A model generated the notes under the pieces. It saw only the letters and a list, made by a program, of their open reading frames with translations. It did no database searches and had not been told where the DNA came from. DNA of 64,000 nucleotides, from NCBI GenBank assembly GCA_964643045.1, contig CAZXSC010000001.1, forward strand, positions 66,296 through 130,295. The letters run 5' to 3'. The DNA is from an uncultured Rhodospirillaceae bacterium (GTDB taxonomy: Bacteria; Pseudomonadota; Alphaproteobacteria; Rhodospirillales; UBA2165). Shown in pieces: positions 1,206 through 49,110 of the stretch; positions within the stretch are counted from its first letter, which is position 1; each line of letters opens with the position of its first letter. The position numbers and the translations under genes are program-made.

Positions 1206-1425
1206 TTTCTACTTTCTAAGTACATAGGAACCGATAGTTATAGTTTCTATCGAATGGGGTCTCATTAAACATAATTAAGTGGCTTTTTGAACTAAGGGCA
1301 GAACCACTATTGACAACTTGTTTTAGAACTTCGTCCGGATATTTGGGCCTTTTGGAGTCTAACTCTATAGATTGCAATTTCAAGCGTTTATCTAGTAAGG
1401 TTTTTTTGCACCATCAATAATCTTC

Positions 1426-2474: not shown

Positions 2475-2495
2475 AATTATAACTTTTCATAGAAA

Positions 2496-3494: not shown

Positions 3495-3568
3495 TTGGCC
3501 TTTCCTTCTTTGTCAGCATATATAAAATAGGTAAGTTTTCAGTGAGTTTACCAACGATAAGCACGAGT

Positions 3569-5470: not shown

Positions 5471-5562
5471 TGGACCAATTAATCTCCTGTTCTGGCGATA
5501 ATAATGGTACACATTATTTTGCTAATTTTTTGCTATGGTTTTGTGCTAAGGGTCGTGTACGT

Positions 5563-6273: not shown

Positions 6274-6345
6274 TTGAGATTTTTATTGAATTTCGTAATT
6301 AAAGTCGGTTTTTAATCTAGATCAATATTTTATGGTAAATTATTC

Positions 6346-6993: not shown

Positions 6994-7060
6994 GTTAAAT
7001 TAGAAATATATAAGCATTTTGCGTTGAGTTATTGGACATTAAAGTTGGGCCTATAAGATT

Positions 7061-7888: not shown

Positions 7889-7930
7889 TAATTTCTCTTC
7901 TGATAGTATTGTGAAGTCGGCAGAGTGTAT

Positions 7931-9097: not shown

Positions 9098-11005
9098 TTA
9101 ACACTTAAGAAGTTCCAGAATGGTGTCTTTGATATATCTCTGGGGATCGTTAATTTCACCTTTCCCATAGTAGTCCCTCTGCATTTTTTTTAGTTTATCT
9201 TTTGGCATATATCTGCTGTGTTCGATGAAGTTTTTTACTCGCTGTCGTAAAATTTTTTCATCAAATACCATGATAGGATAGGGGCTATAATCATGTAAAT
9301 AAGATGTAATAGGGTCGCCATTTGCCATGGCATCAAAAGCAAAAACAGGAATATCTTCAGCTAAACATTGGTCGCATAGTGAAGTTAACCGGGCTATAAC
9401 AAAATCTGACATGGCAGCTATCTGATATGATCTTTCGCTGATGTCGTAATTTGTGTCAATCTCTAGGTTTGGGATCAGCGAAATGGAATTCTTAATGTGC
9501 AAGAATGCCGGTATTTCAAGCCAATCGCAATTTTTTCCCCTGATTATAAAAACACAGCTCGTATTTTCTTTAGCGATTGCTATGATTGTATTATAAAAAT
9601 ATAGATTATCAACCCAGCCAATTCCTGGGCTACAGGCATTTGTAAACGGATCTGGTAACGAGTGAAAATCTAAAACGAGGCAAACCTTAGAATATTGGCC
9701 AAATCTATTTTTGCGTTCAATCTGAGCCACTCTTTTATGAGAAGGTATTCTTTGGTGCATTGGATCACCAGATATAATGATGTCTTGTAATACTGCATAG
9801 GCGCGATTTTCCATCGCTTTCTGTGTTATTTTCCCATGTACAAAAAATACATCGAGAATTGGTGCGAAGCATAACATAAAAGGCAGGAAAAACCGTTCTT
9901 GAACGGCAATTGTTTTGATGCCCATTGTCTGTAAGGCGATTGCGGCGGGTTTTGGAAACAGAAATGAATATCCAATCAGCGCAAGTTTTGAGCCTTTAAA
10001 TAATTCAAAGGATTTTACATATCTGTTTATTTGTAATGTGGTCAAAGCTAGGATGAATGCTCGATGTAAGGTATTTTTGTTTTTATTAAGAGTACGAATA
10101 TTTTTTATAAACAGCTGGATCAAATTCAAAACACTTATTGGATTTTTATCGATAAATGTTGGTTCAATATTGTTGCGACGGTAATCGTTAGAAATACTTA
10201 TGCGCTCGTTTGCGGTAATGTTTTCAGTTAACTCAATGTGGCATATTTGATTGCGGTGGAGCGGATTTTCTAGCTCGGTTGAATAGAAAATATCTTTTTG
10301 AAAAAGATTAGAGTAAGAAATACCTTTATGAGGGAAATAAAGAATATTTGCTTTTTTTTCTCGCCCACTTTCTCGGATCTCCGTGATTTGTTTTTTATTT
10401 GTGAGTTCACCGAGGTGAACCTTGTTCACAATATTTTGTGGTATTTTGATGTACTTACCTGAGTTTTTATATATGCGGTTAATTAATCCTATGAAATCTT
10501 GATTAACCCAAAAAGGGCATAAGTTTTTAATGTTTGTATACTGCGATAGTTTTAGTATAGAAAATACGGTTGTTCGAGGTTGATAAATGCGTGCGTTATA
10601 ACCTAGTTTTTTAAAATGATCAGCTGTGGCATAGGCTAGCGAGTAGGGACGAATGATATTATAAATAGTATCAAATAAAACCGACCTTGCTTTGTTTTTG
10701 GTTGAAGCTGGAACTATTGCTGAGAGAAAAGAAAAATCACTATTAACAAATTGTTTTTTTATTAGTATGTCGGCATATCTTGCGGGTAGGATTAGGTAGG
10801 CGGATACGTCGTAACTTTTCAAGGATCCATAATCTACCCAATCCACGCCTAATTTTTTTAATCTGTCCACCCAGCTTAAATCTCTGATCATACCTTTTGG
10901 TTCGATAAAAATAATATTATTGCCTATGAGTTTTAAGAAGCAGGCTACAGGAATGGTTGCAAGCGTCAGCCACCGGAAAACGACAATTTTTTTCTGTCTA
11001 CCCAA
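9098..11005 (-). CDS. Hypothetical 635-aa protein; the C-terminal half resembles a Rossmann/GT-B-type transferase domain
   Basis: Long uninterrupted ORF with a TTG start. I recognise no family motif. C-terminal pattern: LALIGYSFLFP...IKTIAVQER...VCLVLD...IIRGK...SDFVIARLTSL...IPVFAFD. Confidence 0.45.
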   Translation of the reverse strand: MGRQKKIVVFRWLTLATIPVACFLKLIGNNIIFIEPKGMIRDLSWVDRLKKLGVDWVDYGSLKSYDVSAYLILPARYADILIKKQFVNSDFSFLSAIVPASTKNKARSVLFDTIYNIIRPYSLAYATADHFKKLGYNARIYQPRTTVFSILKLSQYTNIKNLCPFWVNQDFIGLINRIYKNSGKYIKIPQNIVNKVHLGELTNKKQITEIRESGREKKANILYFPHKGISYSNLFQKDIFYSTELENPLHRNQICHIELTENITANERISISNDYRRNNIEPTFIDKNPISVLNLIQLFIKNIRTLNKNKNTLHRAFILALTTLQINRYVKSFELFKGSKLALIGYSFLFPKPAAIALQTMGIKTIAVQERFFLPFMLCFAPILDVFFVHGKITQKAMENRAYAVLQDIIISGDPMHQRIPSHKRVAQIERKNRFGQYSKVCLVLDFHSLPDPFTNACSPGIGWVDNLYFYNTIIAIAKENTSCVFIIRGKNCDWLEIPAFLHIKNSISLIPNLEIDTNYDISERSYQIAAMSDFVIARLTSLCDQCLAEDIPVFAFDAMANGDPITSYLHDYSPYPIMVFDEKILRQRVKNFIEHSRYMPKDKLKKMQRDYYGKGEINDPQRYIKDTILELLKC

Positions 11006-11150: not shown

Positions 11151-12773
11151 TTAGACAGGGGAGTTATTAACATTAGCTAATAGCTTCGCTTGAGATTTGA
11201 TTTCAGCCCGGCGGTTTTTTGCAATTTCTCGAAAAGAATGGAGGACGTCTTTATTTTTAAGATCACCTGCAATATTCTTAGTTTCATCAGGACTTTGTTG
11301 AAGGTCTATTAGAATTTCAGTTGCTGGGGGGCTAGCGTCATGCTCTGAGATTCGTTCTTTAATTATATATTTATAACGGTCATTTCGAAAACACTGATAG
11401 ATTGGGCCTTCTAAGGGGTCACATGGTCCGCGATGGGTATGCTCAGCAACTACAAAATCAGTTTTTTGCGTGTTGCTCAATAGTGACTTACCACAAAACC
11501 CGGGGTCGATTGGGAGATCTAAAGCTTCACAGATTGTGGGGGCTACGTCGATGCTACTGGCTAAAGTTTGGTGACGTTCTATTGGGACGCCCGGACCATT
11601 AAGCAGAAATGGTATATGCAGATATTTATCATGAAAACAACCAGTAACAGATGTGCTAGAAAGAGCATGCTGGCCCTTGAATCTGACCGCTCCGTGATCG
11701 CTGGTGATGGCGACAACTGTATCTTTCACAATATGGTTTGGTAGAGATTTAAGAAAATTATTTAAATTAGTATCTACATAATTAAGTGCCATGTCGTAAG
11801 TATACTGTTCACGATTACACGCGCCAAGACCCTGTCTTGATTGGTATGATTGTGTCGGCCGCATTACATATTGATGCTCTGAACAAATATTGTCATGTAT
11901 GTCCATCAGATGAACCACAGCAGCAAAATGTGCACCATTTAATGTATTAATCCATTTGAATATTATATCGAAAGCTGCTGCCGATGAAATTTGTTTATCA
12001 TAGGTTCGCATTCTAAGGTCGGTACCGGGAATTCGTTTGTGGTCCAAAGGCCTGAGGAGTTTATTTAAGTGGCGATATATTGGCTGAATTTTAAGAAAAC
12101 CCTCCAGACTATTGTTTGTAATACGATCAATATTTCTTTCTATGTATGCTTGGGGATCTGTGTTCAAGTGATCTCTATGTTCAAGTACAAGGTTGTGGAT
12201 AGTCTGAAAGTCATAACAAAAAATAGGGGTGTTGAGATTTCCAACAAACTCTGGAAGATTAATCCAGCGTTGTGTGTAATCTAAAATAAAGTCATAAAAC
12301 CAACTGACAACTTTTATTATTTCTCTTTGAACTGCCACATGTCCAATCTGTTCTTTTTTTCTTAGAATATGCCATAAGAAAGTTCGCCGCATACAGCGCC
12401 ATATCAACTCAATATCATAAAAACTTAGCGTAAAATCAGCGCCAGCATCAAAACCGTAGAGAGAATCAAGTATGTACGTTTTTGTTAGAAGACAGGTTGA
12501 ATATCCGTGGGTCTTTAAATAATTCAACAGGCTGGCTTTTCGCGTTGACATTCCTTGCATATATCCGCCCCTATCGAGCGGCAGTGAGGAGCTAAATATT
12601 GACGCCATGCTGAATTCTGTCGGGTTGCCATGGGAGTAAAAATTTTCACACCAAAGCCCTGAATTTGCGAGGTTTATTATAGTGGGGCAAATATCGGCTC
12701 GTGGGCCAGTCAGCGGAATACGGCTAGGTGTAGCGCTATCTGCTATGATAAGGATGAGATTTTTATTTTTCAT
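11151..12773 (-). CDS. Sulfatase-like alkaline-phosphatase-superfamily hydrolase/transferase, probably Thr-nucleophile type, soluble
   Basis: 540 aa. It has a metal-ligand strand LILIIADS and an ITSDHG motif. The nucleophile region HGNPTEFSMASIFSS aligns with G-x-x-T-x-(Y/F)-S-x-x-x-(M/I)-F-S of EptA/LtaS-type phosphotransferases, not with C/S-x-P-x-R. No N-terminal TM block. Confidence 0.7.
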   Translation of the reverse strand: MKNKNLILIIADSATPSRIPLTGPRADICPTIINLANSGLWCENFYSHGNPTEFSMASIFSSSLPLDRGGYMQGMSTRKASLLNYLKTHGYSTCLLTKTYILDSLYGFDAGADFTLSFYDIELIWRCMRRTFLWHILRKKEQIGHVAVQREIIKVVSWFYDFILDYTQRWINLPEFVGNLNTPIFCYDFQTIHNLVLEHRDHLNTDPQAYIERNIDRITNNSLEGFLKIQPIYRHLNKLLRPLDHKRIPGTDLRMRTYDKQISSAAAFDIIFKWINTLNGAHFAAVVHLMDIHDNICSEHQYVMRPTQSYQSRQGLGACNREQYTYDMALNYVDTNLNNFLKSLPNHIVKDTVVAITSDHGAVRFKGQHALSSTSVTGCFHDKYLHIPFLLNGPGVPIERHQTLASSIDVAPTICEALDLPIDPGFCGKSLLSNTQKTDFVVAEHTHRGPCDPLEGPIYQCFRNDRYKYIIKERISEHDASPPATEILIDLQQSPDETKNIAGDLKNKDVLHSFREIAKNRRAEIKSQAKLLANVNNSPV

Positions 12774-12802: not shown

Positions 12803-13510
12803 TTATTCTATGTACGATTCCAAGGGCTGATCAGAGAGAGCAAAGCGTAATTTCATTTTGTCGTAACCGACAGAGGTTTTAAAAGTTCTAACTAGCATTT
12901 TATCGACCTCGTCAAGGTCAATCTTATCACTATTATTACTTAATATAACAAATTGCACCTCTGAATGATCAACGTCGGCCTCTTGGTGACAGATGAAAAG
13001 TTCGAGCTCTTCTTCAGTAAAGCCGCGTTTTCTATATTCGTCCTCAAAAAATCTAGAGACGGGAGCATACCATTCTTCAATTGCTGCTGTTACTGCCATT
13101 AAAGAAAATAAAGAGCTCTCTTCGCACACTGCCACCCATTCATTGTTAATGGATTCAAGGTCTTCATTGTAACGAATAGACGATTGGCGTGATACCGGCG
13201 TTCCTGCGAAAAGTTTGAATCGCATGTCGAGATGGTCTATATGTTCATCGGTTTCGCCTTCGTCATCAATTATCTCTTCCATTCTACTTACATCGTTGGT
13301 AGTGATTTGGTTCTTCGTTGAACCCGATTGAAGTTTCGATTTATACATATCCTGAATTTTTTGGCGAGTATTAAGTGCACGGTAGAGCTCAACGATCTCA
13401 GCACAAAGAATTTTTTGGCGGTCAAACTTGTTTTCTAAGAGAGCTGTGCAAAAAGGCATAGTTTCCAATGCGGGTTGTCTTTCCCGGATTAGGTCAAATA
13501 CATCAGTCAT
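12803..13510 (-). CDS. Hypothetical helical protein, possibly heme-oxygenase-like/TenA/PqqC-fold metalloenzyme
   Basis: Start reassigned to the ATG at 13510 (MTDVFDLIRERQ), 8 nt overlapping the upstream stop. It has a His/acid-rich helix ICHQEADVDHSEVQF and EEWYAPVSRFFEDEY. The family assignment is weak. Confidence 0.35.
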   Translation of the reverse strand: MTDVFDLIRERQPALETMPFCTALLENKFDRQKILCAEIVELYRALNTRQKIQDMYKSKLQSGSTKNQITTNDVSRMEEIIDDEGETDEHIDHLDMRFKLFAGTPVSRQSSIRYNEDLESINNEWVAVCEESSLFSLMAVTAAIEEWYAPVSRFFEDEYRKRGFTEEELELFICHQEADVDHSEVQFVILSNNSDKIDLDEVDKMLVRTFKTSVGYDKMKLRFALSDQPLESYIE

Positions 13511-14390
13511 TTTTTTTCCTTTTGGCCCGGTTTTTATTGTCACGTTCTTTATTAGCAAGACCCGAGATACGCCAGGCAGCAAAGCGCCACTTAAGTGTAT
13601 CCATCTGTTCCATATTTAGCTCAGCCATATTCTTGCGATCCACATCATACCAAGAGTAAAAAGGGTCATCTTCCAAAAATTCAGGAAATTGATCGCTAAT
13701 AAGTTCAATATTATCAAATCTCGAGGCCAATAATGTTGGGATCCTTGCAAAAAGCGGCTCGCCCCGGTTGTCGTTAATGGGTTTGATTGGTTCGAGCCCA
13801 ATTTTGCGGCGATTAATATTTATGATCGGCTCATAGACATGTTCATAATTTTGATTTGCATCATCTACGCAAACTAACGAATTTTCCTCGTATAAAGGCA
13901 ATAATGCTTCAATCTCTTGGCTGACTGTATTCCAAGTATGATCTGAATCATGGTGAGAAAAATGAATTTTTTTTGTCAGCTCACCTATAATAGCCAAGCC
14001 AATATAAGGGTCAGTAGAGTCTCCTGAGATAAAAGTCCAATGCTCACTAATTGATTTGTTATGGACTTTTTCCAGAGTATCAGCGCAGACTGAGCGAATA
14101 AATGAGGCTTTTGAAGCATTCGTATCCCACGAAAATACATGACCACCTGTCATCATCGCGTGGTGAATGAGAAGGAGTGTGCTTGCTCCTACACCAGTTT
14201 CAACCAAATTGGCAGAACGCTCAAACACTGGATTCTCTAAGTATTTTTTTAGCAATCTAAACTCTGAATCTGGCAATGAATTTGCCCATCTTGGTAGGCT
14301 ATGCTTAACCGCGATCAGGTATTGATCAAGGTCCGACATGATACTTTCCCGTGAACCATAATAAAAGTCATGCATCAGATTTTGTTGCAC
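13503..14390 (-). CDS. Class I methyltransferase-fold protein (TylF/CmcI-like)
   Basis: LVETGVGASTLLL resembles the ETGVxxGxS motif of TylF/MycF-type O-methyltransferases. The start is uncertain (GTG 14390 or ATG 14375). Confidence 0.5.
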   Translation of the reverse strand: MQQNLMHDFYYGSRESIMSDLDQYLIAVKHSLPRWANSLPDSEFRLLKKYLENPVFERSANLVETGVGASTLLLIHHAMMTGGHVFSWDTNASKASFIRSVCADTLEKVHNKSISEHWTFISGDSTDPYIGLAIIGELTKKIHFSHHDSDHTWNTVSQEIEALLPLYEENSLVCVDDANQNYEHVYEPIININRRKIGLEPIKPINDNRGEPLFARIPTLLASRFDNIELISDQFPEFLEDDPFYSWYDVDRKNMAELNMEQMDTLKWRFAAWRISGLANKERDNKNRAKRKKND

Positions 14391-14393: not shown

Positions 14394-15131
14394 TTAAACG
14401 CGTTTACAAGGATCATTGTGAGCATAACGCAACGCCAAATTTTTTAATACCGGATGGATTATAAAATGGCTCGGTGAATCTGGTGGGAGTGTATTACTGA
14501 CTTCAGCGGGGAATATGCCGTTTGATCTAAAATGGTCAAGAATGTTAGCGAGTAAATCGGCGCGGAAAACAGGATCCAATATGTAGTCGATATCCATTTT
14601 GGGCATTGGTTGATACCAGGCGCGGGAAATTATATTACCTGTGTCTATTCCCTCATTTACCCAGAATGCAGTCATTCCGAGTTGCCCATCCTTTAGCAGA
14701 CCGTAGTAAAATCCAGTTGCGCCACGGTCCCTTGGTAAATAACCACCATGAATGTGTATAAATTTTGTTTTAAGTTTGAGGAGAACCGGTTTAAGTAAAA
14801 TTCGCGGAAACCCAGAGTAAACAAGTACTGGCATACTCAGTGCGGATATTTCAGAGACACCTTCTATTGAATTTATGTCCTTATTCTTCAAATACCCAAC
14901 GGGACAATCGACAGAACTAAGAGATTCAGTTATGGATTGTGCGGGTCTAAAGGTAAAATCTAATGTTTTGAGGTAAATAGATTGGCTTCCTGACCAACTT
15001 GGCTCTTCGCCGGGCATGACGTATATACTGCCTAGATTAATTTCACGTTTAATTAACATCTGCACATAAGCACGTGAACGAATGGTAGGTGCAAGAATCA
15101 ACCCAACATCGTTGAGTGTTTTGGCAATCAT
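14394..15131 (-). CDS. Formyltransferase-fold protein with a variant catalytic motif
   Basis: FIHIHGGYLPRDRGA compares with canonical NxHxSLLPxxRG, and the VNEGIDTGNII Asp motif is retained. Start placed at ATG 15131, which forms an ATGA overlap with the upstream stop. Confidence 0.55.
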   Translation of the reverse strand: MIAKTLNDVGLILAPTIRSRAYVQMLIKREINLGSIYVMPGEEPSWSGSQSIYLKTLDFTFRPAQSITESLSSVDCPVGYLKNKDINSIEGVSEISALSMPVLVYSGFPRILLKPVLLKLKTKFIHIHGGYLPRDRGATGFYYGLLKDGQLGMTAFWVNEGIDTGNIISRAWYQPMPKMDIDYILDPVFRADLLANILDHFRSNGIFPAEVSNTLPPDSPSHFIIHPVLKNLALRYAHNDPCKRV

Positions 15132-15703
15132 CGTGTTTTTATTTCCCACGTTGCTACTAGTTGTTTCTCAACCTTTATGAGTTGGGCGAGCTTTTCAGCT
15201 ACCGAAGGCGTGTAATAATTGGCTGGGATTGCACAAAGGGCATCTGTTAGTTTTAGAAGCGTTGAAAGATATTGTGGTTCCTCGAAAACTCGCGTAGCAA
15301 TCGATAAGGCCTGACCAAATAGGACTAGTTCGCTGATTGAGGCAACTGATGAGCCAATAGCTTTGTTTAGGGATGGTGTGTAAAATGAAAACAAGCGCCG
15401 AAAAATCTCAAACTTCGAAAGCAATGCATCTATAGTCTTGCGGCCGTCATCGAGTGTTGTGGAGTAATTTTCCATATTATTGATAGCGGTTGTCAAAAGT
15501 GATTCTAAAGATACACCCTCTGGTATTGATTTTTTTTCAGTTAATAGACAACCTTCGGTTTTTGCTTCGCGGACAATACGCGTTATAGCGTTATCGCGGC
15601 TTTCTTTCCAAGCATCTAAAAAAGACTGGCCTTCGCACTTTGCAAATTCGTACCTTTCCGGATTCTTGAAAGCATCAGGTCTTTCGTAAGGATATTTTTT
15701 CAA
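15128..15703 (-). CDS. Hypothetical protein (191 aa, predicted helical)
   Basis: The ORF is translationally coupled at both ends (TTGA at 15703-15700, ATGA at 15131-15128). No motif recognised. Confidence 0.5.
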   Translation of the reverse strand: MKKYPYERPDAFKNPERYEFAKCEGQSFLDAWKESRDNAITRIVREAKTEGCLLTEKKSIPEGVSLESLLTTAINNMENYSTTLDDGRKTIDALLSKFEIFRRLFSFYTPSLNKAIGSSVASISELVLFGQALSIATRVFEEPQYLSTLLKLTDALCAIPANYYTPSVAEKLAQLIKVEKQLVATWEIKTR

Positions 15704-16230
15704 GGCGAAGATTTTCGCGGCGTTGAGACGATCTGGGAATATATCAGTTCTGCGATCTCACCTGGATCGGCGAAGATCTCCGGTTTTTTAATTATGAGAT
15801 CAGGATTAACAGGCCGAGGGAACGGTATATCAATTCCTACAACATCTGAAATGATCCCGTTCCGAACTTTTTTATAAAGACCCTTAGAATCCCTTGATTT
15901 GATTATGTCGATGGGCGTGTCGAGAAAAACTTCAAAATACCGCTCGAAATTTTGTCGGTTCCACTCTTGTAAATCCGGAAAAATAGATAAAGCAGCGACA
16001 ATAATAATCAACTCTGATTCTTGGTCTAGCATCTTGCATAGATTGGAGAATCGCAGATGATTCTTTCTTCGGCCAGCTGCATTGAATTCTAGGTCCTCTT
16101 CCCAGAGTGAACGAAGCTTATCACCGTCTAGGAAAAGTACTTTATGTTGCTGATTACGGAAGATGCTAACCAATTCTCGGGAAACAGTAGTTTTACCTGC
16201 GCCGGATAATCCAATGATCCAAATTATCAT
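15700..16230 (-). CDS. Adenylylsulfate-kinase-fold P-loop kinase; candidate cytidine diphosphoramidate 3'-kinase (Cj1415-like)
   Basis: 176 aa with IIWIIGLSGAGKTT Walker A, as in CysC. It is the last gene of a four-gene set syntenic with cj1418c-cj1415c. Confidence 0.65.
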   Translation of the reverse strand: MIIWIIGLSGAGKTTVSRELVSIFRNQQHKVLFLDGDKLRSLWEEDLEFNAAGRRKNHLRFSNLCKMLDQESELIIIVAALSIFPDLQEWNRQNFERYFEVFLDTPIDIIKSRDSKGLYKKVRNGIISDVVGIDIPFPRPVNPDLIIKKPEIFADPGEIAELIYSQIVSTPRKSSP

Positions 16231-16242
16231 ATATTAATCAAT

Positions 16243-17013
16243 CTAGTCTAAGCGGCCATTTGTAGAAAGTTTTTGTGCAATCACGAGATCTTGCGGACTG
16301 TCAATTTCTACCCAACCCCCATCTATCTCAATTGCATTGGGTCTATAGCCATTCGTGATCATACCCTGTAGTAGGTCTGTCATGTATAGGTTTTTTAAAT
16401 CTCGCGAACAATTAAATGGGGTCAATCCTTTCTTATTGGCATCTTGAGCTATTGAATATACAGCCTTAAGTTGGTCGATAGCTTTACCTCGGAATATGGT
16501 CATACCAATATATTGGGATTGAATTTGCGATAGATTTCTTGAGTTCTGACCAATTTCTATAATTTCCCTTTTTTTATTTAAGAGAAGTGTTTCAGCATCA
16601 GATAAGGGATCTTCGAAGCGCAGTTTCCAATAGTTCAACCAATCATTATCTATAACAACACCAAAAGAAATTGAAGAATTTAATACTTTTTTAAAAACGC
16701 GCCGTGAATAAGCTATGTCTCCATAACTAACTATAAAATCGCAATCAAAATAACTTTTTGCACAAAATAGTGAATAAACCATATTTGTGGTTTTATAATT
16801 TTCATTCATCACTATTCTTGCTTGGTTGCTAGGTAAGTGATCGGCTCTATAACCACCAACAATAATGATATCATCAACGCCGAGTGATTTGGCAACTTCA
16901 ATTTGTCGATGGATAAGCGGTTGTCCGTTTAGTTCAACCATGCATTTTGGCATAGTCTTTGTTAAAGGTAATAGTCGGGTCCCTTGGCCTGCGGCAAGGA
17001 TTATTAAGCGCAT
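16243..17013 (-). CDS. Nucleotidyltransferase (LicC/GlmU-N-like); candidate CTP:L-glutamine-phosphate cytidylyltransferase (Cj1416-like)
   Basis: 256 aa with the MRLIILAAGQGTRLLPLTKTMPKCMV motif. Its position in the cassette supports the call. Confidence 0.65.
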   Translation of the reverse strand: MRLIILAAGQGTRLLPLTKTMPKCMVELNGQPLIHRQIEVAKSLGVDDIIIVGGYRADHLPSNQARIVMNENYKTTNMVYSLFCAKSYFDCDFIVSYGDIAYSRRVFKKVLNSSISFGVVIDNDWLNYWKLRFEDPLSDAETLLLNKKREIIEIGQNSRNLSQIQSQYIGMTIFRGKAIDQLKAVYSIAQDANKKGLTPFNCSRDLKNLYMTDLLQGMITNGYRPNAIEIDGGWVEIDSPQDLVIAQKLSTNGRLD

Positions 17014-17642
17014 TTTTTAATCCATTGGGAAAATAATTCGTGATCGATCTGTTCTGACGGGCTCTCACGCTCCGGATGCCACTGGACGGCGATAATGGGT
17101 AAGTTCGGGTGGACCAGGCCCTCTATAATTTGGTCATCGCTGATGGCAAAACTCTTTAGCGAAGATGCAAGTTGTCCAATTTTTACGCCTTGATTATGAT
17201 AGCTATTCACCGTTAATAACACATCACTATCAGCGCTGGAAAACTTTTCATCCATGGTGATTGTATGATTGATAGCGACATGATTTTCAGTCAATTGTCT
17301 GCTTAGTCCCCCACCGAAAAAGCGGTTGATAACTTGTAAGCCGCGGCAAACACCGAATACGGGCAGACCTATTTGTGTTGCCTTTGCTAACAATCTTTCT
17401 TCGGCCTGGTCTCGTTCGGACAGCTGCTTCCTTTCACCAAGGCTATTGCCGCCGGTAAGAAGTAATCCGGCCGGTGAGACGGCATCAAAGTAAATAGTAG
17501 GATCGGGTAGGTTGTTAGGTATAAAAATAGGCACGACATTATATTTTGATAGGAACTTAACCCAATCGTGTGCAATAGCGTCTCGACGTTCGATATAGGA
17601 AGTGTTTTCGGAGATACGCATCGAGACAAGGATATTAATCAC
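17004..17642 (-). CDS. Class I glutamine amidotransferase/peptidase C26 (PuuD-like); candidate CDP-L-glutamine hydrolase (Cj1417-like)
   Basis: 212 aa with the nucleophile elbow GVCRGLQVIN and VQWHPE His motif. A GTGA overlap links it to the upstream gene. Confidence 0.65.
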   Translation of the reverse strand: MINILVSMRISENTSYIERRDAIAHDWVKFLSKYNVVPIFIPNNLPDPTIYFDAVSPAGLLLTGGNSLGERKQLSERDQAEERLLAKATQIGLPVFGVCRGLQVINRFFGGGLSRQLTENHVAINHTITMDEKFSSADSDVLLTVNSYHNQGVKIGQLASSLKSFAISDDQIIEGLVHPNLPIIAVQWHPERESPSEQIDHELFSQWIKKCA

Positions 17643-20600
17643 AACCTTTTTACCGTTCCGTTCTGGCCATCAATTTCGATTTCACTACAGCCACGAAGGC
17701 TTTCGAATAATGTTTGGCCGCAGCCGATAGCGGCCGGCAAGCTAAATTCTGCAGCCCTGATGCTCATGTGTGAACCGATGCCGCCGTACTGTGTCAATAG
17801 ACCTACTAAAGAGTGGCTAAAAATCCAGTCGTAACCTGGATCAGCGGAGCGGATTGCTACGATAGCCCCTTCAAGATCGTAGGGTGGTTTTTGATCATCT
17901 AACCATACTATGCGAGCTCTTACGCATTTATGAGTAACGAAATTTGGCTGATGAAGAATGACCTCGAATGCTGAAACATCGTTGACAGTGCGTATCAGCT
18001 CTGGCAGGCGTATGGCACAGGTCAGCACCCATCTTTTTTCATTAAATTCCACCATACGCCGAAAATAACTAGTTTGGGCATTGTTGAAGCTGTCGGTGCC
18101 AAGGCGGAAATATTCGTCAATCGGGATAAAAGCCAGTTGATTGCGGCTAAAGCCTATTTTTTCCCCAAGTAAAGCTACGTTCTCTAGGGCGTCGTTAAGG
18201 TTACGCATAAATTGGAATTTTGCTGATTCCCGTGCTGAAATTGCGCTTCTAACAAAATCGATAAATTTATCAAAACTAATGTTCAATCCTAAATCGCTGA
18301 AACATTTCTCAATATTGCTTGCTTTGTCAGAAAGCACCTCCGCAATGTCCTTGTCTACGGGCGCTTGCAGATGGTCACAAGTACTCTTGAGCATTCTTTG
18401 TTTATTGAAAATTTGCTCTATATCAGAGGAATAGTTGGGTGAGTTGATATCATATGAATGTGGACGCAGATGACCGTAGCGTTCTATCATCTTATCCAAT
18501 TCAAGGCGGTCTTCAGCATAAGCCAACATATCTTCAGAGAAGCGGCTGGCCACTGTCGGAATGCCAAGTAGCACGTTTTCAAACTCCACTTCCTCTATGA
18601 CTCCACAATCCCGCAATCCTCTCAGTAAGGTCATAGCAATAAAAGCGTAGCGCGCTAGGATAGAAAAAGACACAATCCCATAATTTTGGCAATCTTTAAG
18701 CAAATTTCGAATATGCCGTGCAATGTCAGCGACTGTCTCGTGCGGCTCTTCTATTAGTTGATTGCGACGATCTTCTAGTATATTGAGTGAATTTTGAAGG
18801 TCTATGATAGGTTCTACACTTCCATTAACGATATTTTGCGTAAGTTCTCTTAAACAGAACTTGAAGGTTTCAATTTGTTCAGGACTGAGACCAGCTTCTT
18901 GCATACGTTTAGCTTGTTGTGGCCAATCAGGCGCTAGACAAGTGGCAGCAATTTCAAACTCTATTTTGTCGTGAAGATGAGGTTGTTGGCACAGGCGCTC
19001 AATGTTAGCGTTAATCCAATTTTCGGCAATTGAAGTTTCTAAACCATCAGGTAGGAAAGAATTCAAGCTGGCACGCACATCGACATAGGGTCTACCTGCG
19101 ACGGAAACAATAAGAGCCTCAGGATCAACTTTCCTATAACCAATCCGAGCACGTGCTTTGGCCCAACTCAAGTCGCCAATTAAAGTTTGGTAAATGCTCA
19201 AGGCTAATGGATTAGGTGTTTCTCCGAGCATTTCGACTGGATTCCAATCCGGCATCGAACCAAGGACTGATGTTTTGCCCAATACCCCATTGCGGGGCCT
19301 CATTAAGGACCGAATAAATTCCTGAGCACCAGTCACCATGTCAAAAAAATCATCTTCGGCAATTGGCAAATTTTTGGTGTTCGTCAGTGGCCTAATTTGG
19401 AAAAGATGACAGGTACTATTTCGGTCGATTCCGTATTCAATATTCAATGTATTGATGTGAGACAGCGCCATCATCTCTTGGCCCAGCTTAAAAGTTTTCT
19501 GTGCCGTTTGAGGGAGGTGCGATATGTCGTGTCCAGGTAAAGCATAATATGTTTTAAGATTTCCCTTGCCTCCCGAGGTAACCAGATCTGAGCGTCCGGT
19601 AGTCTCGTCTGCATTAATAATGAGATAGGGGGCTCCGCTTCGTGGATCTTCAGTTAGTAAAACACCACTTGAAAGTAAACCTTCTACTTGAGGTTGTATC
19701 AGAACTTCATCTTTAGTAGACCTAATTCGACCATTTCTGGAAAAGCTGTTTATGACCTGCTGGATCGCGTTAGTGAGTTGCTTTTTATTGGTGGGATCAA
19801 CGTCAAGAATTGAATCAAAAGCACCCGCAGCCGAAAACTCATATTGGTCCTCGCTTGTAGTGGAGCTGCGGACGATTAAAGGTCCTTTGGGGAAAGCTTT
19901 TTTTATGGATACTAATATCTTCGTTGCGTTATTTTCCCAGCGGGCAACCGAAAAACGCTCTCTTGCTAGGACCCGTGCTTCTTTTGCTAGTGGCGCAATA
20001 TGATCCAGTGTTTGTGCTTTACCTTTAAATACAGTTTGTGAAATTTTGACTTTGTCAGTGATTAAAGCGGCTAAGTCATCAAGGTCAACGTTTTTACTCG
20101 TGTTACCAATCAGGGCCTGCTGAAGGTCATTAAAGTTAGCTAAGGGATCTTTTTTGACTAATTTTTTTGCGGCTGATAAGAATAGATCGAATGACCCTGA
20201 CCTAACGCGCATAGCAACTGTCACTTGATTGTTAGAAGATGTACGAACATTTCCAAAAGTTATGCCTTGTCCAGAATGTAGGTTAAGGAAGAATTTTGGC
20301 AGGTAAAGGACGTCTGCGCGGACGATAATTGTTTCAAGGGGCTTGTCTGTTGCTAGCAGCATAGATACTAGGTCCCCCTGATTCAGGCGGTCTTTTTGAT
20401 AAATCAATTTAAGGTTGGGATAACTCTGAAGCACTTTTTCAATGTGATAGCCACCGACATATGAAATGCCACAGTCATCTAAATTTTTTAATGCGTGGAG
20501 CAACCATTCCATTACGGGCTTGTTGAAGGTTTTATCTCGATCAAGAGAGTGCGGTTGGCTTTTTTGAGGGTCTAGACGGCGTGTGCCTTCGGCTGGCTCA

Positions 20601-20683
20601 ATGATGATCACGGCAGGTGCGCTTTCCCTGTCCGGGGGCTCGGCAAGATTATTGGTGAAGTTATTATGTTGTTGTTTAGTCAT
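17639..20683 (-). CDS. PEP-utilising-enzyme family protein (PpsA/PPDK architecture) with an N-terminal nucleotidyltransferase-like extension; candidate L-glutamine kinase (Cj1418-like)
   Basis: 1014 aa. ATP-grasp region LIVRSSTTSEDQYEFSAAGAFDSILDV. C-terminal phospho-His swivel domain GGIGSHMSIRAAEFSLPAAIGCG. About 215 N-terminal residues contain VIIIEPAEGTRRL, a degenerate LAAGxGTRL. Confidence 0.65.
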   Translation of the reverse strand: MTKQQHNNFTNNLAEPPDRESAPAVIIIEPAEGTRRLDPQKSQPHSLDRDKTFNKPVMEWLLHALKNLDDCGISYVGGYHIEKVLQSYPNLKLIYQKDRLNQGDLVSMLLATDKPLETIIVRADVLYLPKFFLNLHSGQGITFGNVRTSSNNQVTVAMRVRSGSFDLFLSAAKKLVKKDPLANFNDLQQALIGNTSKNVDLDDLAALITDKVKISQTVFKGKAQTLDHIAPLAKEARVLARERFSVARWENNATKILVSIKKAFPKGPLIVRSSTTSEDQYEFSAAGAFDSILDVDPTNKKQLTNAIQQVINSFSRNGRIRSTKDEVLIQPQVEGLLSSGVLLTEDPRSGAPYLIINADETTGRSDLVTSGGKGNLKTYYALPGHDISHLPQTAQKTFKLGQEMMALSHINTLNIEYGIDRNSTCHLFQIRPLTNTKNLPIAEDDFFDMVTGAQEFIRSLMRPRNGVLGKTSVLGSMPDWNPVEMLGETPNPLALSIYQTLIGDLSWAKARARIGYRKVDPEALIVSVAGRPYVDVRASLNSFLPDGLETSIAENWINANIERLCQQPHLHDKIEFEIAATCLAPDWPQQAKRMQEAGLSPEQIETFKFCLRELTQNIVNGSVEPIIDLQNSLNILEDRRNQLIEEPHETVADIARHIRNLLKDCQNYGIVSFSILARYAFIAMTLLRGLRDCGVIEEVEFENVLLGIPTVASRFSEDMLAYAEDRLELDKMIERYGHLRPHSYDINSPNYSSDIEQIFNKQRMLKSTCDHLQAPVDKDIAEVLSDKASNIEKCFSDLGLNISFDKFIDFVRSAISARESAKFQFMRNLNDALENVALLGEKIGFSRNQLAFIPIDEYFRLGTDSFNNAQTSYFRRMVEFNEKRWVLTCAIRLPELIRTVNDVSAFEVILHQPNFVTHKCVRARIVWLDDQKPPYDLEGAIVAIRSADPGYDWIFSHSLVGLLTQYGGIGSHMSIRAAEFSLPAAIGCGQTLFESLRGCSEIEIDGQNGTVKRL

Positions 20684-20689: not shown

Positions 20690-22702
20690 CTAAGGCATAT
20701 TTTCACTATAAAGGAAATAAAAGAAATCATCATAATCGGTATATTTAAATAACTCTTTCAGGTTTTTCCACTCCAATTGATAAGCTTTCCGGCGGTGCTT
20801 CAAATAATCTTGCCTATTAGGCAGATCCGTTACTAATTCGGCAAGGCAATTCTCATTCCCAGAGCGTTCGACGATAGTATTATCAAGTACCACTGCATCC
20901 ATTTCGGAATAGGCCATGAATCTAAGTAAGTCCGCAAAGTCGATAATTATGCTCTCGCCTGACATGTTAAGGCTGGTATTCATGAGAACGCCAACACCAG
21001 TTTGCTGTTTGAATTCATTGAGGATAGAAAAAAGTTTGGGGTTAAAGTCCTGTTCCAATGTTTGTACACGTGCCGTAAGGTCATGATGAATAACAGCACC
21101 AAGACAGTCACGCGCTTCATTATTCATTCTTGGTGCAAGTAACATGTATGGACTGTCAGTGACCTCACTTTCGTTACCCCAATATTTTTCAGCTTCTTGT
21201 TTTAGCATTACCGGGGCAAATGGGCGAAAGTCCTCTCTATGTTTAATAGTTTTGTTGACTCGTGGCCAGTTTTCATAAGGCCGTGGATCTGCAAGGATTG
21301 AACGGAAACCAAGGGCTCTGGGACCGAATTCATATCGGCCTGACATATACCCAATCACGTTGCCTTTGGCTATTAAGCTAGCCACGTTTTTCGGCGTAAA
21401 ATCAGTGTATTTGAAACCCTTTTTATCGAGAAATTTTTTGATCTGTTGAGGATCATTTCTTGTGCCATAATTGTTAAAATAACGTAGCCGTTTCTCTCTT
21501 TTAGCCCGCTGATTACCATTTAGTTCATTGTGGCGTAGAAGAAGAGCCGCCCCTAGCGCGGTGCCATCATCGCCGCAAGGTGGAATCAAAAAAGGTTTGA
21601 TTTTTAATTTGGCGCGTAACTTTTCGTTCATTACACAATTCAGGGACAGACCACCCGAAAAAACAACATTCCGTGTATTGAGCATTTTACAGGCGTTTTT
21701 GACCAATTGGGCACAAACTCGTTCAGTGGTTTTTTGTACTGCGTATGCGATTGCCATGTGGCGGTCATTTATTGATTCGTCGTCCTTTCGTTTAGGACCA
21801 ATTATTTTTATAAGTAATTTCTTGAAATTGAGTCGCTGGCTTTGTGAATAGGATAACAATTCGTCGTTGAACGTAAAATCAAATTGTTTATTATCGACCT
21901 TAATTAGTTGATCAATTATTGATACAAATCGATTATCACCATAAGCAGCTAAGCCCATCAATTTGCCTGGACCTTCAATGCGACTGAAGCCAACATATTC
22001 TGCAAACACTTCATAAAACGTTCCGATAGACAAGGGGTGTTGGATCTCAGCTACGCGGACCATTTTTTCTCCCTTACCGTGAGTAAGCACTGTACTATCG
22101 AATTCACCCCGGCCATCCCACGTCACTATGGCAGCATTATCGAAGGGGCTTGCAAAGTAAGTGGCGGCGTGAGTATCGTGATGGCGAAATCCAGTTATTG
22201 GCACCGTAGGCAGGAATCGTGAGATGTTTATCTCGGTGGCCAATTCGTTTAGATAGCGTACAAGCAGATAACAGATATTCTTTCGTAGAGACAGATTATC
22301 ACTCGCCGATGGCAGTCCACTTATTAGTCCCTTAATTTTTTCTGGCAGGAAGTCAATGTGTGGAAATGCTTCGTCGCTACGGTTGAGAATAGTCGCAAGC
22401 TCATGGCGCAGCCGTCGTTCTGTTTTGGCATCAAAACTACCTTCAAAGTATGACTGCGGAGGGAATTTGAAACAATTACGATCGCGGGAATAGGCTACGG
22501 CAGAAATGTTTTCAGCCCCAATTTGCTCTATCGCCAATTTTAGCGATTTAAAAGGAAAACCAAAATGATGAGATATTCCTGAATGACGATCTTCGGATAA
22601 AAGCAGTACTGGTTCATTCATCTCTGCACTAAGTACACAAACCGCGGCATCGTGAAACGATCCATTTATGCCAATGACGTAAGGTTTTGCCAGTGTTGAC
22701 AT
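20690..22702 (-). CDS. Carbamoyltransferase (NodU/CmcH family)
   Basis: About 670 aa with YVIGINGSFHDAAVCVL and GFRHHDTHAATYFASPFDNAAIVTWDGRGE, typical of the carbamoyltransferase N domain, plus a long C domain. The ATG at 22702 is preferred over the TTG at 22705. Confidence 0.8.
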   Translation of the reverse strand: MSTLAKPYVIGINGSFHDAAVCVLSAEMNEPVLLLSEDRHSGISHHFGFPFKSLKLAIEQIGAENISAVAYSRDRNCFKFPPQSYFEGSFDAKTERRLRHELATILNRSDEAFPHIDFLPEKIKGLISGLPSASDNLSLRKNICYLLVRYLNELATEINISRFLPTVPITGFRHHDTHAATYFASPFDNAAIVTWDGRGEFDSTVLTHGKGEKMVRVAEIQHPLSIGTFYEVFAEYVGFSRIEGPGKLMGLAAYGDNRFVSIIDQLIKVDNKQFDFTFNDELLSYSQSQRLNFKKLLIKIIGPKRKDDESINDRHMAIAYAVQKTTERVCAQLVKNACKMLNTRNVVFSGGLSLNCVMNEKLRAKLKIKPFLIPPCGDDGTALGAALLLRHNELNGNQRAKREKRLRYFNNYGTRNDPQQIKKFLDKKGFKYTDFTPKNVASLIAKGNVIGYMSGRYEFGPRALGFRSILADPRPYENWPRVNKTIKHREDFRPFAPVMLKQEAEKYWGNESEVTDSPYMLLAPRMNNEARDCLGAVIHHDLTARVQTLEQDFNPKLFSILNEFKQQTGVGVLMNTSLNMSGESIIIDFADLLRFMAYSEMDAVVLDNTIVERSGNENCLAELVTDLPNRQDYLKHRRKAYQLEWKNLKELFKYTDYDDFFYFLYSENMP

Positions 22703-22786
22703 CAATTTCTATTCGATTTTGGTAAATTATTTGATGATGTTTGTAGCAAGGACGTGTATCAATCTATTCGAGTGTTTCTTTTACAG

Positions 22787-26056: not shown

Positions 26057-26977
26057 CTAGGGACGGTTAATTTCTTCGCTGATGCTTTCGATATCGAGCC
26101 CGTGCTTTGATAACAATTCCAAGTGATTTCCATAAAAATGAATAAATTCGTCCTTTAAGGAAAAACATTTTAAACTACAATTGGCCTTCATTTCCCATGC
26201 AATTTCTTTTACCCGTGAGCCTAGTCCACCATGAGGAACGTGCTCCTCAATTACTGCTATTTGATTGTGGGTCGCTAAGATTTTTTGTATGCCTTCTGTA
26301 TCAAGGGGCTTAATAGTATGGCAAGAGTATACAGATACAGATTTCCCGGTTGAAGAAATCTGTTTGGCAACACTGAGAGCCATATCAACTGTTATGCCAT
26401 ATGATAGTATTGCAACATTTGCCCCCTGTTGAAGACATCTTACTTTCCCAATTTTAAATGGATCGATAGCTTTACTAGTTAAATCTGGCTCGCCTGCTTT
26501 ACCTAGTCGCATGTAAACTGGACCCAGACTTTCCGTCGCACACCAAGTTGTTGCCAAGCGCATTTCGTCTGGGTCGCATGGTGCGAGGACGGTTAAATTG
26601 GGAATTGCGGAAGCGATTGCGATGTCTTCAATTGTATGGTGGGTACCACCAAGTGTGGAGTAAATAACCCCAGCCCCCATACCGATAACTGTTACCGGTA
26701 AATTTTGATAGCACAAATCATCACGGACCATTTCAAATGGACGATAAAGACTGAACGTGGCAATCGTATAACAAAACGGGCGCATCCCGTTTAAAGCCAT
26801 TCCAGCAGCAATTCCAATCATTGATTGCTCGGCAACACCACAATTAATAAATCGGTCTGGGAAATCCTCGCGAAAATTAATCATTGAGCCAGCTGGCGAT
26901 AGATCTGCCACTAAGGCGCAAATACGATCATCTTTTTTGCCAATCTCGTAAATAGCATCTGCAAATTTATTTCTCAC
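26057..26977 (-). CDS. Transketolase, C-terminal (pyrimidine-binding) subunit
   Basis: 306 aa with GVAEQSMIGIAAGMALNGMRPF. It is paired with the N-terminal subunit by a 4-nt overlap. Confidence 0.85.
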   Translation of the reverse strand: MRNKFADAIYEIGKKDDRICALVADLSPAGSMINFREDFPDRFINCGVAEQSMIGIAAGMALNGMRPFCYTIATFSLYRPFEMVRDDLCYQNLPVTVIGMGAGVIYSTLGGTHHTIEDIAIASAIPNLTVLAPCDPDEMRLATTWCATESLGPVYMRLGKAGEPDLTSKAIDPFKIGKVRCLQQGANVAILSYGITVDMALSVAKQISSTGKSVSVYSCHTIKPLDTEGIQKILATHNQIAVIEEHVPHGGLGSRVKEIAWEMKANCSLKCFSLKDEFIHFYGNHLELLSKHGLDIESISEEINRP

Positions 26978-47794: not shown

Positions 47795-48292
47795 TTAAAT
47801 ATTTATTGCTGATGAAGGTAGACGCACGCGCACGGGACGCCCCATTAGGTTAAGCAAAATAACTACGCGTTCGTCATCATTCTGACATTCGAAAATGCCG
47901 ATGTGTTCGTTAAAAGCACCAGCAGTGATTTGTACTTGGTCCCCAGGTTTAATATTTAATTGTCTATTTAGAGAAACAATACCTTCATCGTCTTCCCGAG
48001 CTCGAATTTCATCTAGTAATTCTGTTGGAACTGGAGTTGGCAAAGCGCCAAATTGGACGAGTTTTTTCACGCCGATTGTAGAATTAATGCAGGACCAGTT
48101 TTCCTTATTGAGGTCAAATTCAACGAATAAATATTTTGGGAAAAGAGGTGCCAAGACACTATCTATGCGGCGTGCATGGCGTCTATGTTTTTTATATTGT
48201 GGTAAATATACTTTGAATTTCTGTTGTTTTAAATTAAGAAGAGCTTTGGGCTCTTCCCGTGACTTGGTGTTAACAACGAACCATTGTTTCAT
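47795..48292 (-). CDS. rfaH: RfaH-like specialised NusG paralog (operon-specific transcription antiterminator)
   Basis: 165 aa. WFVVNTKSREE, PLFPKYLFVEFD, VQFGALPTPVP and the KOW segment PGDQVQITAGAFNEHIGIF, ILLNL closely parallel my recollection of E. coli RfaH (PLFPNYLFVEFD, VRFGASPAIVP, PGDKVIITEGAFEGFQAIF, LLLNL). Confidence 0.75.
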   Translation of the reverse strand: MKQWFVVNTKSREEPKALLNLKQQKFKVYLPQYKKHRRHARRIDSVLAPLFPKYLFVEFDLNKENWSCINSTIGVKKLVQFGALPTPVPTELLDEIRAREDDEGIVSLNRQLNIKPGDQVQITAGAFNEHIGIFECQNDDERVVILLNLMGRPVRVRLPSSAINI

Positions 48293-49098: not shown

Positions 49099-49110
49099 CA
49101 CGCTACCGCA
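49099..49110 (-). promoter_or_regulatory. ops-like (JUMPstart core) RfaH recruitment element
   Basis: The minus strand reads TGCGGTAGCGTG, matching 11 of 12 bases of the E. coli ops consensus GGCGGTAGCGTG. It lies in the non-template strand of the leader, about 120 nt upstream of the first gene. Confidence 0.5.

Follow-up and report, generated by a model that had tools for sequence, protein, structure and literature searches.

A predicted phosphoramidate-donor cassette in a glycan locus of an uncultured Rhodospirillaceae bacterium, with relatives across bacteria and archaea

Gene layout of the cassette

We analysed a 64,000-nt stretch of DNA from an uncultured Rhodospirillaceae bacterium (contig CAZXSC010000001.1), here called the window, within which all coordinates are counted. 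It carries four consecutive minus-strand genes encoding a large kinase, a class I amidotransferase-fold hydrolase, a nucleotidyltransferase and a small kinase, which the initial annotation had read as a cassette for the donor of a phosphoramidate, a phosphorus–nitrogen (P-N) decoration of glycans. This reading is supported by curated family models (cut-offs are exceeded by the large kinase with NF004508 and by the small kinase with NF004041, and NF045546 is the best model of the hydrolase, although below its cut-off), by synteny in ~70 of 80 compared loci and by gene fusions. The features of the cassette are as follows.

17639..20038, minus strand: glutamine-kinase-like core of the large kinase, with an ATP-grasp region (PPDK_N), a central domain and a C-terminal phospho-His swivel domain (Pfam, NF004508)
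20039..20683, minus strand: N-terminal domain of the large kinase with a cytidylyltransferase (LicC/PntC-like) fold, about residues 1-215 (AlphaFold2 model and Foldseek)
17768..17770, minus strand: codon of His972 of the large kinase in the motif GGxxSHM, predicted phospho-carrier (alignments, PEP-utilizers mobile domain)
17004..17642, minus strand: class I amidotransferase-fold hydrolase, predicted gamma-glutamyl-CDP-amidate hydrolase, Cj1417-like (NF045546, catalytic triad)
16243..17013, minus strand: nucleotidyltransferase, predicted CTP:phosphoglutamine cytidylyltransferase, Cj1416-like (Pfam, motifs, context)
15700..16230, minus strand: APS-kinase-fold P-loop kinase, predicted cytidine diphosphoramidate 3'-kinase, Cj1415-like (NF004041, tree, motifs)

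The four open reading frames (ORFs) lie at 17639-20683, 17004-17642, 16243-17013 and 15700-16230, with the same boundaries as in the initial annotation, and encode products of 1014, 212, 256 and 176 aa, respectively. Their close coupling was confirmed by the spacing of the genes, which is -4 nt between kinase and amidotransferase, -10 nt between amidotransferase and nucleotidyltransferase and +12 nt between nucleotidyltransferase and small kinase. The 212-aa form of the amidotransferase starts at GTG, and an ATG 21 nt downstream gives the 205-aa form that is called in public assemblies. A carbamoyltransferase gene ends 6 nt upstream of the large kinase gene, and the small kinase gene overlaps the next gene, g191, by 4 nt. 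From 8.5 to 26 kb, promoter-like and terminator-like sites showed no excess over shuffled sequence, a result compatible with a single long operon.

Pfam places the four proteins in the families that had been claimed for them, with PPDK_N and PEP-utilizers in the large kinase, Peptidase_C26/GATase in the amidotransferase, NTP_transferase/NTP_transf_3 in the nucleotidyltransferase and APS_kinase in the small kinase. All of the motifs quoted in the initial annotation were found in their proteins: LIVRSSTTSEDQYEFSAAGAFDS and GGIGSHMSIRAAEFSLPAAIGCG in the large kinase, GVCRGLQVIN and VQWHPE in the amidotransferase, MRLIILAAGQGTRLLPLT in the nucleotidyltransferase and GLSGAGKTT in the small kinase.

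The large kinase and its additional N-terminal domain

Family membership was assessed using NCBIfam models with their curated cut-offs, Pfam, sequence searches of the Protein Data Bank (PDB) and Foldseek on AlphaFold2 (AF2) models. The large kinase scores 784.7 bits against NF004508, where the cut-off is 501, and its residues 212-1014 align to profile positions 4-788 of 789. We take NF004508 (PRK05849) to be the Cj1418 family, with which the name 'glutamine kinase' given by the Joint Genome Institute (JGI) to two 39%-identical metagenomic relatives agrees. Against the models for phosphoenolpyruvate (PEP) synthase, pyruvate phosphate dikinase (PPDK) and rifampin phosphotransferase, the protein reaches at most 53 bits (52.9 for the best PEP synthase model), the cut-offs of the PEP synthase and PPDK models being at least 456. 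The large kinase and these enzymes have the ATP-grasp and the swivelling phospho-His domains in common, but its central substrate domain is unrelated in sequence to that of PEP synthase and PPDK. A full-length PEP synthase/PPDK match including the PEP/pyruvate TIM-barrel was not found, and what matches is the swivel domain (~75-90 aa) and a fragment of PPDK_N. PDB sequence matches of the large kinase were confined to the ~90-residue C-terminal swivel domain (5fbs, 5hv1), and PDB sequence searches gave no close relative for any of the four cassette proteins. The predicted phospho-carrier His972, which lies in GGIGSHM, is invariant in the 13 sequences of alignment A1 and at least 90% conserved in alignment A7, and is presumably equivalent to the catalytic His of Cj1418. 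On sequence grounds, the 1014-aa protein is a predicted L-glutamine kinase of the Cj1418 family.

The first ~210 residues of the large kinase fall outside the NF004508 match. The AF2 model of this N-terminal domain has a predicted local distance difference test score (pLDDT) of 87.8, and a Foldseek search against the PDB returned PntC (6pd2, E 2e-9) and LicC (1jyk, E 5e-9) with template-modelling scores of 0.67-0.69. BLAST also detects weak matches to the stand-alone nucleotidyltransferases of the cassettes. The initial annotation had assigned a PpsA/PPDK architecture to the whole protein; the ATP-grasp region and phospho-His swivel are indeed present, and the ~210-aa cytidylyltransferase-fold domain had been overlooked. 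The fold of LicC, PntC and IPCT cytidylyltransferases is common to the 256-aa protein and to the N-terminal domain of the kinase, but the fused domain differs from these enzymes in a motif residue: it retains G33-T34-R35, while the Lys of the 'PK' motif is replaced by His45. The domain may be non-catalytic; binding of a cytidine nucleotide and delivery of the product to the next enzyme are possible roles. Despite this fused domain, a full stand-alone cytidylyltransferase is encoded two genes downstream.

The amidotransferase, the nucleotidyltransferase and the small kinase

The top model of the amidotransferase is NF045546 (gamma-glutamyl-CDP-amidate hydrolase), which it matches end to end with 106.6 bits. 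This leads by ~48 bits over the others, since the anthranilate and GMP synthase subunit models reach at most 58 bits and PuuD reaches 44 bits. The triad Cys99, His189 and Glu191 is invariant across 65 amidohydrolase sequences. The scores of at most 53 bits for the large kinase and 44 bits for the amidotransferase bear out the separation of these two proteins from PpsA and PuuD.

The 256-aa nucleotidyltransferase has intact GxGTR...PK motifs and matches both NTP_transf_3 and NTP_transferase in Pfam, and its nearest PDB sequence is LicC (1jyk, 2.8e-20). A homologue of it adjoins the amidohydrolase in 75 of the 80 loci compared below. Motifs and context are consistent with the role of Cj1416 without proving it. 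Compared to LicC, PntC and IPCT, its predicted substrate is N-phospho-L-glutamine and not phosphocholine or a phosphonate.

With 151.9 bits, the small kinase exceeds the cut-off of 127 of NF004041, a subfamily (PRK05541) that presumably contains Cj1415. It fails both the adenosine 5'-phosphosulfate (APS) kinase model TIGR00455 apsK (120.9 versus 138.7 bits) and the E. coli-type CysC model PRK03846 (103 versus 163). A neighbour-joining tree that included E. coli CysC as well as cassette-linked and fused kinases grouped the window protein with copies that are adjacent to the cassette, fused to the glutamine kinase or fused to g191, while E. coli CysC and the distant APS kinase of locus L013 fell outside. 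The P-loop and the DGD motif are invariant in the small kinase; the cassette kinases carry DGDxLR and SxF(P/H)xxxxWNR in place of the DGDNVR, ENIRR and FISP of CysC. Model scores, tree and motifs together set the small kinase apart from CysC, as had been proposed. The APS-kinase fold is common to this enzyme and the system that makes 3'-phosphoadenosine 5'-phosphosulfate (PAPS), and the small kinase should likewise yield a 3'-phosphorylated nucleotide donor. It differs from that system in that the substrate motifs of CysC are replaced, that the predicted donor would carry phosphoramidate on cytidine and not sulfate on adenosine, and that the window has no sulfotransferase-like gene.

Distribution and gene order of the cassette

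Scanning one genome per GTDB species with the large kinase as the query, we found relatives in at least 579 genomes, and the cassette is present in at least 579 species genomes of bacteria and archaea. In an exhaustive HMMER search, 1,440 clusters at 50% identity match the large kinase at E ≤ 1e-30. Among the matches listed, the closest genome relative of the window kinase is 42-43% identical, and the exact window proteins were found only in environmental metagenome assemblies (ENA, JGI). Loci were compared for the best 80 of the at least 579, among which C. jejuni does not occur, and gene presence was determined by iterative searches with the window proteins as queries. These 80 include Pseudomonadota, Chloroflexota, Planctomycetota, Bacteroidota, Bacillota (Cohnella), Actinomycetota and bacteria of the candidate phyla radiation, together with the archaea Haloferax elongans, Woesearchaeota, Nanoarchaeota, Methanosarcinales and Altiarchaeales. 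All 80 have the kinase core, while 75 have the nucleotidyltransferase, 73 the amidohydrolase and 46 the small kinase. The genes are mostly adjacent and in the order of the window, and kinase, amidohydrolase and nucleotidyltransferase are adjacent in ~70 of the 80. Since the same families occur in the same order near relatives of the large kinase in this many unrelated genomes, the arrangement is beyond chance. The initial annotation was right that the cassette occurs outside Campylobacter, but the rarity that it implied was overstated; the cassette of the window belongs to a large family that has mostly gone unrecognised, and does not represent a one-off transfer from Campylobacter.

The large kinase occurs in three architectures. 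A short form of ~790 aa is accompanied by the small kinase in 17 of 18 well-covered loci. The form with an N-terminal nucleotidyltransferase-like domain (~1000-1050 aa) has the small kinase in just 10 of 27. In the third form (~975 aa, seven loci: L039, L040, L058, L073, L075, L081 and L083), the small kinase forms the N-terminal part of a fusion with the glutamine kinase, as Pfam confirmed for L039 (APS_kinase, PPDK_N and PEP-utilizers). These fusions and the small-kinase tree argue for a role of the small kinase alongside the glutamine kinase, as opposed to one in sulfate activation. The fused-kinase loci have a class I methyltransferase in six of seven cases and lack both g191 and fT, a formyltransferase-fold protein encoded next to g191 in the window; class I methyltransferases accompany small-kinase loci only. 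The window copy is a distinct architectural variant and clade, with the extra kinase domain and with the small kinase followed by g191 and fT. Kinases with the extra domain, the small kinase and g191 form its clade in L004 (Magnetovibrio blakemorei), L005, L007-L011, L017 and L018.

The candidate TRANSFERASES in other loci are of TagF-like and sulfotransferase-like types. A TagF-like (PF04464) gene is found in 17 loci (L005, L021, L026, L034, L035, L041, L043-L045, L049, L056, L057, L060, L061, L065, L080 and L082), frequently interspersed among the genes of the cassette and for the most part in loci that lack the small kinase, and one also lies by the cassette on a Vibrio alfacsensis plasmid (L091). 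Judging from gene content, TagF-like loci without the 3'-kinase suggest an alternative route that would use the CDP-amidate directly. On the Azospirillum lipoferum 4B plasmid AZO_p6 (L092, 3641-6181), an 846-aa protein annotated 'adenylyl-sulfate kinase' consists of a sulfotransferase-like N-terminal region fused to a cassette-type kinase, and adjoins a glutamine kinase cassette and two Sulfotransfer_1 genes. This fusion fits a PAPS-like use of the 3'-phosphorylated donor, and the protein is a candidate PAPS-like phosphoramidyl transferase.

In Campylobacter, P-N decorations matter for phage recognition, serum resistance and vaccine design, and the literature treats such sugar decorations as a peculiarity of that genus. 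Orthologues of the pathway were earlier sought only within Campylobacter (PMC3907429), and a 2022 review called the glutamine kinase 'C. jejuni-specific' (PMC9561416). A preprint on Borgs describes a Cj1416-1418-like cluster in archaeal elements. Outside Campylobacter, unmethylated phosphoramide has been reported in the lipopolysaccharides (LPS) of Xanthomonas campestris and Shewanella sp. MR-4 (PMC3907429; PMC3210612), and these reports of P-N glycans link no genes to them. Our results indicate that genes of the donor pathway are present in hundreds of species of bacteria and archaea, usually under housekeeping names. The miscalls that the initial annotation had predicted are real, as RefSeq names relatives 'PEP-utilizing enzyme', 'gamma-glutamyl-gamma-aminobutyrate hydrolase family protein', 'phosphocholine cytidylyltransferase family protein' and 'adenylyl-sulfate kinase'; the JGI pipeline already uses 'glutamine kinase'. 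A concrete correction for automated annotation follows from the cassette. At least three cassette architectures occur with different candidate transferases (TagF-like, sulfotransferase-like and alkaline-phosphatase-like), and the breadth of P-N glycans, the enzymes of the transfer step and modified forms of the phosphoramidate can now be tested. The single instance in the window is ordinary within its family, and it is the breadth, the misannotation and the conserved partners g191 and fT that carry the interest.

Proposed pathway and alternative explanations

The initial annotation had called the cassette syntenic with cj1418c-cj1415c of C. jejuni NCTC 11168. This stands for the four families, for their motifs and for their order, which in C. 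jejuni we take to be kinase, amidohydrolase, cytidylyltransferase and small kinase in the direction of transcription; it does not extend to the fused domain or to anything downstream. The sizes are comparable, the NCBIfam profiles having 198 positions for the amidohydrolase and 176 for the small kinase, and the C. jejuni cytidylyltransferase is presumably close in size to the 256-aa protein. In C. jejuni, Cj1415-1418 make cytidine diphosphate (CDP)-phosphoramidate 3'-phosphate from glutamine, ATP and cytidine triphosphate (CTP) (PMC11800397; PMC3907429), in a pathway summarised in PMC11800397 and PMC6429109. Both systems are found in a surface-glycan locus with heptose-modification genes (PMC11800397). 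In C. jejuni the O-methyl phosphoramidate (MeOPN) transferases are Cj1421 and Cj1422, with the methyltransferase-like but functionally unassigned Cj1419/1420 as neighbours (PMC11800397; PMC3907429), whereas the window cassette is followed by g191, fT and a Thr-nucleophile protein. The window differs also in the extra ~210-aa cytidylyltransferase-fold domain of its kinase, and its locus stands under an RfaH-like protein and an ops-like element and not in a kps capsule locus.

We consider it likely, from family assignments and gene order, that the four genes are the donor branch of an MeOPN-type pathway as first worked out in C. jejuni. The families, the intact catalytic motifs, the conserved synteny and the gene fusions are observed; the substrates, the final transfer, the acceptor and the presence of a P-N group on the glycan are what we infer from them. 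After formation of L-glutamine phosphate by the large kinase, the 256-aa nucleotidyltransferase would convert this product and CTP to CDP-L-glutamine, from which the 212-aa Cys-His-Glu hydrolase would release glutamate and cytidine diphosphoramidate. The 176-aa APS-kinase-fold enzyme would then phosphorylate the 3'-OH to give 3'-phospho-cytidine-5'-diphosphoramidate, a PAPS-like donor, and the phosphoramidyl group would finally be moved onto a sugar of the glycan made by the RfaH/ops-controlled locus, whose nonulosonic-acid and heptose genes are numerous.

Several observations weigh against this assignment. The amidotransferase, at 106.6 bits, does not reach the equivalog cut-off of 250 of NF045546, which sets it apart from the C. 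jejuni enzyme, and all 65 of 65 cassette-linked amidohydrolase homologues match this model (best E 6.4e-46) below the cut-off. No NCBIfam model for a phosphoglutamine cytidylyltransferase (Cj1416) appears among the best 25 of 32 matches of the 256-aa protein, so that the cytidylyltransferase assignment is one of context. The likeness to the C. jejuni pathway was assessed through profiles and synteny. No TagF-like transferase was found in the window by a family hidden Markov model (HMM) or by hhalign comparison with the 635-aa and 432-aa proteins, and no sulfotransferase-like protein was found there with the Azospirillum fusion as a probe. In addition, fT might N-formylate a nonulosonic acid instead, the pseudaminic-acid formyltransferase PseJ being its closest solved relative. 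The same families could also serve another chemistry, in which a different amide or amine is phosphorylated, or CDP-glutamine or another CDP-intermediate is itself the donor, and the glycan bears a phospho-amino-acid or phosphodiester and no phosphoramidate. Substrate specificity is not revealed by sequence, CDP-amino-acid donors that phosphotransferases use directly are now known (10.64898/2026.02.12.704994), and the CDP-N-methylthreonine pathway for the flagellin of Clostridioides difficile offers a parallel. Moreover, many related loci have a TagF-like, CDP-alcohol-type phosphotransferase and lack the 3'-kinase, and the sub-threshold score of the amidohydrolase also leaves room for such a scheme. 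However, the intact Cys-His-Glu triad and the presence of the amidohydrolase in 73 of 80 loci speak for removal of the glutamyl part, the window encodes the 3'-kinase and nothing TagF-like, and the large kinase passes NF004508 and has relatives that JGI names 'glutamine kinase'. We regard this other chemistry as improbable.

The position of the small kinase allows another explanation, namely that it is a true APS kinase making PAPS for sulfation of the glycan, and stands beside a three-gene CDP-amidate module because both decorate the same glycan. Its APS_kinase fold and 120.9-bit match to TIGR00455 would fit this, as would the sulfate-activation or sulfotransferase genes that neighbour the cassette on plasmids of Vibrio alfacsensis and Azospirillum, and the sulfatase-family gene downstream in the window. 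Nevertheless, the small kinase fails the apsK and CysC cut-offs and passes NF004041, lacks DGDN, ENIRR and FISP while having the cassette signature WNR, and groups with kinases that form one polypeptide with the glutamine kinase. In the 'sulfatase' the nucleophile is a Thr and the formylglycine motif is missing, and the window genes inspected, a subset of the ORFs, included neither a sulfate adenylyltransferase nor a sulfotransferase. We therefore think a sulfation role very improbable. Finally, single Pfam domains and current RefSeq names would point to four unrelated housekeeping-type enzymes (PEP synthase/PPDK, PuuD, LicC and CysC) that are adjacent by chance or for phosphocholine or sulfate decoration. 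This is hardly credible, as the PEP synthase/PPDK, PuuD and CysC models score far under their cut-offs, the gene order is conserved across phyla, members are fused to each other, and no choline-related genes were seen. Four independent housekeeping enzymes were rejected on the model scores, the conserved order and the fusions.

Downstream genes and candidate transferases

The genes flanking the cassette that bear on the donor or its transfer are as follows.

15128..15703, minus strand: g191, an all-helical 191-aa protein without known family (AF2 model; coupled to the small kinase)
14394..15149, minus strand: fT, a formyltransferase-fold protein (Pfam Formyl_trans_N, 2.4e-10)
13503..14390, minus strand: Methyltransf_24-family S-adenosylmethionine-dependent methyltransferase, candidate O-methylase (Pfam PF13578, 2.5e-11)
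11151..12773, minus strand: soluble alkaline-phosphatase/sulfatase-superfamily protein of 540 aa, candidate phosphoramidyl transferase or hydrolase (Pfam Sulfatase)
9098-11005, minus strand: 635-aa protein without known family (no Pfam or NCBIfam match)
20690..22705, minus strand: NodU/CmcH-type carbamoyltransferase in the same operon (Pfam Carbam_trans_N and Carbam_trans_C)

The g191 protein matched no family in Pfam or NCBIfam. Its AF2 model is helical with a pLDDT of 88.3, and a comparison of this model with PDB folds gave nothing better than E 0.1. g191 is present in 28 of 80 loci, and the pair of g191 and fT follows the small kinase in 28-31 of 80; among well-covered loci both occur in 19, fT alone in 3 and g191 alone in none. 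The small kinase is fused to g191 in L042, and g191 is fused to fT in L007. The nearest PDB entry of fT is PseJ (1.9e-6), and its family motif lH.H.G.LP.YRG...D.G keeps the catalytic His and Asp, with the Asn of N-x-H changed to His. These two proteins, tied to the 3'-kinase by the fusions, probably alter the donor or its product; they might, for instance, N-acylate the amidate.

The 540-aa protein has no predicted transmembrane segment. Asp12, Thr52, H..H and SDHG are conserved in it and 15 relatives, and the formylglycine motif C/S-x-P-x-R is absent. It has the Thr-nucleophile pattern of phospho-group transferases in common with EptA and LtaS, but is without their membrane domain. Homologues lie in or beside the cassette in 14 loci, and are embedded in it in Haloferax elongans (L016), L025, L046 and L053. 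With low confidence, from its motifs and neighbourhood, we favour this soluble protein as the candidate transferase. In the clade of the window the donor might serve for more than MeOPN: g191 and fT could modify the P-N group, for example by N-formylation or another N-acylation, and the 540-aa enzyme, forming a covalent intermediate, could pass the group on to a nonulosonic acid or heptose, a combined scheme that we put forward tentatively and hold to be doubtful. If true, a phosphoramidate modified by g191 and fT would be an undescribed P-N glycan decoration that is widespread in environmental bacteria and archaea.

The remaining neighbours are less closely tied to the cassette. The Methyltransf_24 gene has no homologue in the 80 loci and is not conserved with the cassette, and the carbamoyltransferase is near the cassette in just 3 of 80. 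Neither a homologue in the 80 loci nor a paralogue in the window was found for the 635-aa protein; its length is close to that which we assume for the C. jejuni MeOPN transferases, a likeness of size only. The 635-, 626-, 607-, 411- and 432-aa proteins of the window show no paralogy among themselves and are not seen in the other loci, and the 411-aa protein has no Pfam match.

Glycan locus and its regulation

Almost the whole window is one minus-strand glycan locus. It contains several genes of CMP-nonulosonate synthetase type, NeuB and NeuC-type genes, and WbuX with HisH/HisF-like amidotransfer genes; CTP_transf_3 occurs in at least four copies across the window and its flank. Genes of a heptose pathway encode SIS, HAD phosphatase, PfkB with a cytidylyltransferase-like domain, transaldolase and a split transketolase. 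There are also many SDR epimerases/dehydratases, several methyltransferases, the carbamoyltransferase, an MsbA/PglK-like ABC exporter and only a small number of glycosyltransferases. Features of this wider locus are as follows.

459-8989 and 49575-54968: nonulosonic-acid gene sets (NeuB, NeuC-like, PglD-like, WbuX with HisH/HisF-like)
47795..48292, minus strand: RfaH-like NusG paralogue at the head of the locus (TIGR01955)
49099..49110, minus strand: ops-like element TGCGGTAGCGTG (11 of 12 positions agree with GGCGGTAGCGTG), located in the leader that precedes the MarR-EPS and RfaH-like genes

In 18 of the 80 loci, genes for nonulosonic acids are found no more than 8 kb from the cassette, and 14 of these loci also encode the small kinase. 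This makes a nonulosonic acid or a heptose a plausible acceptor. The split transketolase (N and C parts) and a transaldolase/FSA-family gene are found at 26057-27801 and 35184-37060 on the minus strand, beside GmhA-like and HAD phosphatase genes, and a PfkB/cytidylyltransferase-like gene lies near this set at 31591-33144. With these transketolase, transaldolase and GmhA-like genes the locus may make its own sedoheptulose-7-phosphate for a modified heptose.

The RfaH-like protein has TIGR01955 (RfaH) as its top NusG-type model, with 134.6 bits just below the cut-off of 144.5, and its gene and that of a MarR-EPS-type regulator span 47795-48978 on the minus strand. In a 12-mer search, TGCGGTAGCGTG was the sole match in the window with at most one mismatch, where 0.09 are expected by chance. 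The exact ops 8-mer has a single match, no more than chance would give, and this lies within the operon on the wrong strand. The signs of RfaH/ops regulation that the initial annotation had noted are thus borne out by the RfaH-like gene and the 11/12 element, and both favour a proteobacterial host. No tRNA and no Rfam match was found in the window.

Among the few plus-strand genes is one at 56166-58046 for a 626-aa protein with ~10 predicted membrane segments and no Pfam or NCBIfam match, which might be a ligase, a polymerase or an oligosaccharyltransferase-type enzyme. The only G/C homopolymer of at least 8 nt in the window is a C8 run (G8 on the coding strand) at 50167-50174, which lies close to the start of the gene for a PglD-like acetyltransferase (49575-50228, minus strand), within roughly its first twelve codons. 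By analogy with C. jejuni capsule genes, this run could be a slipped-strand phase-variation tract.

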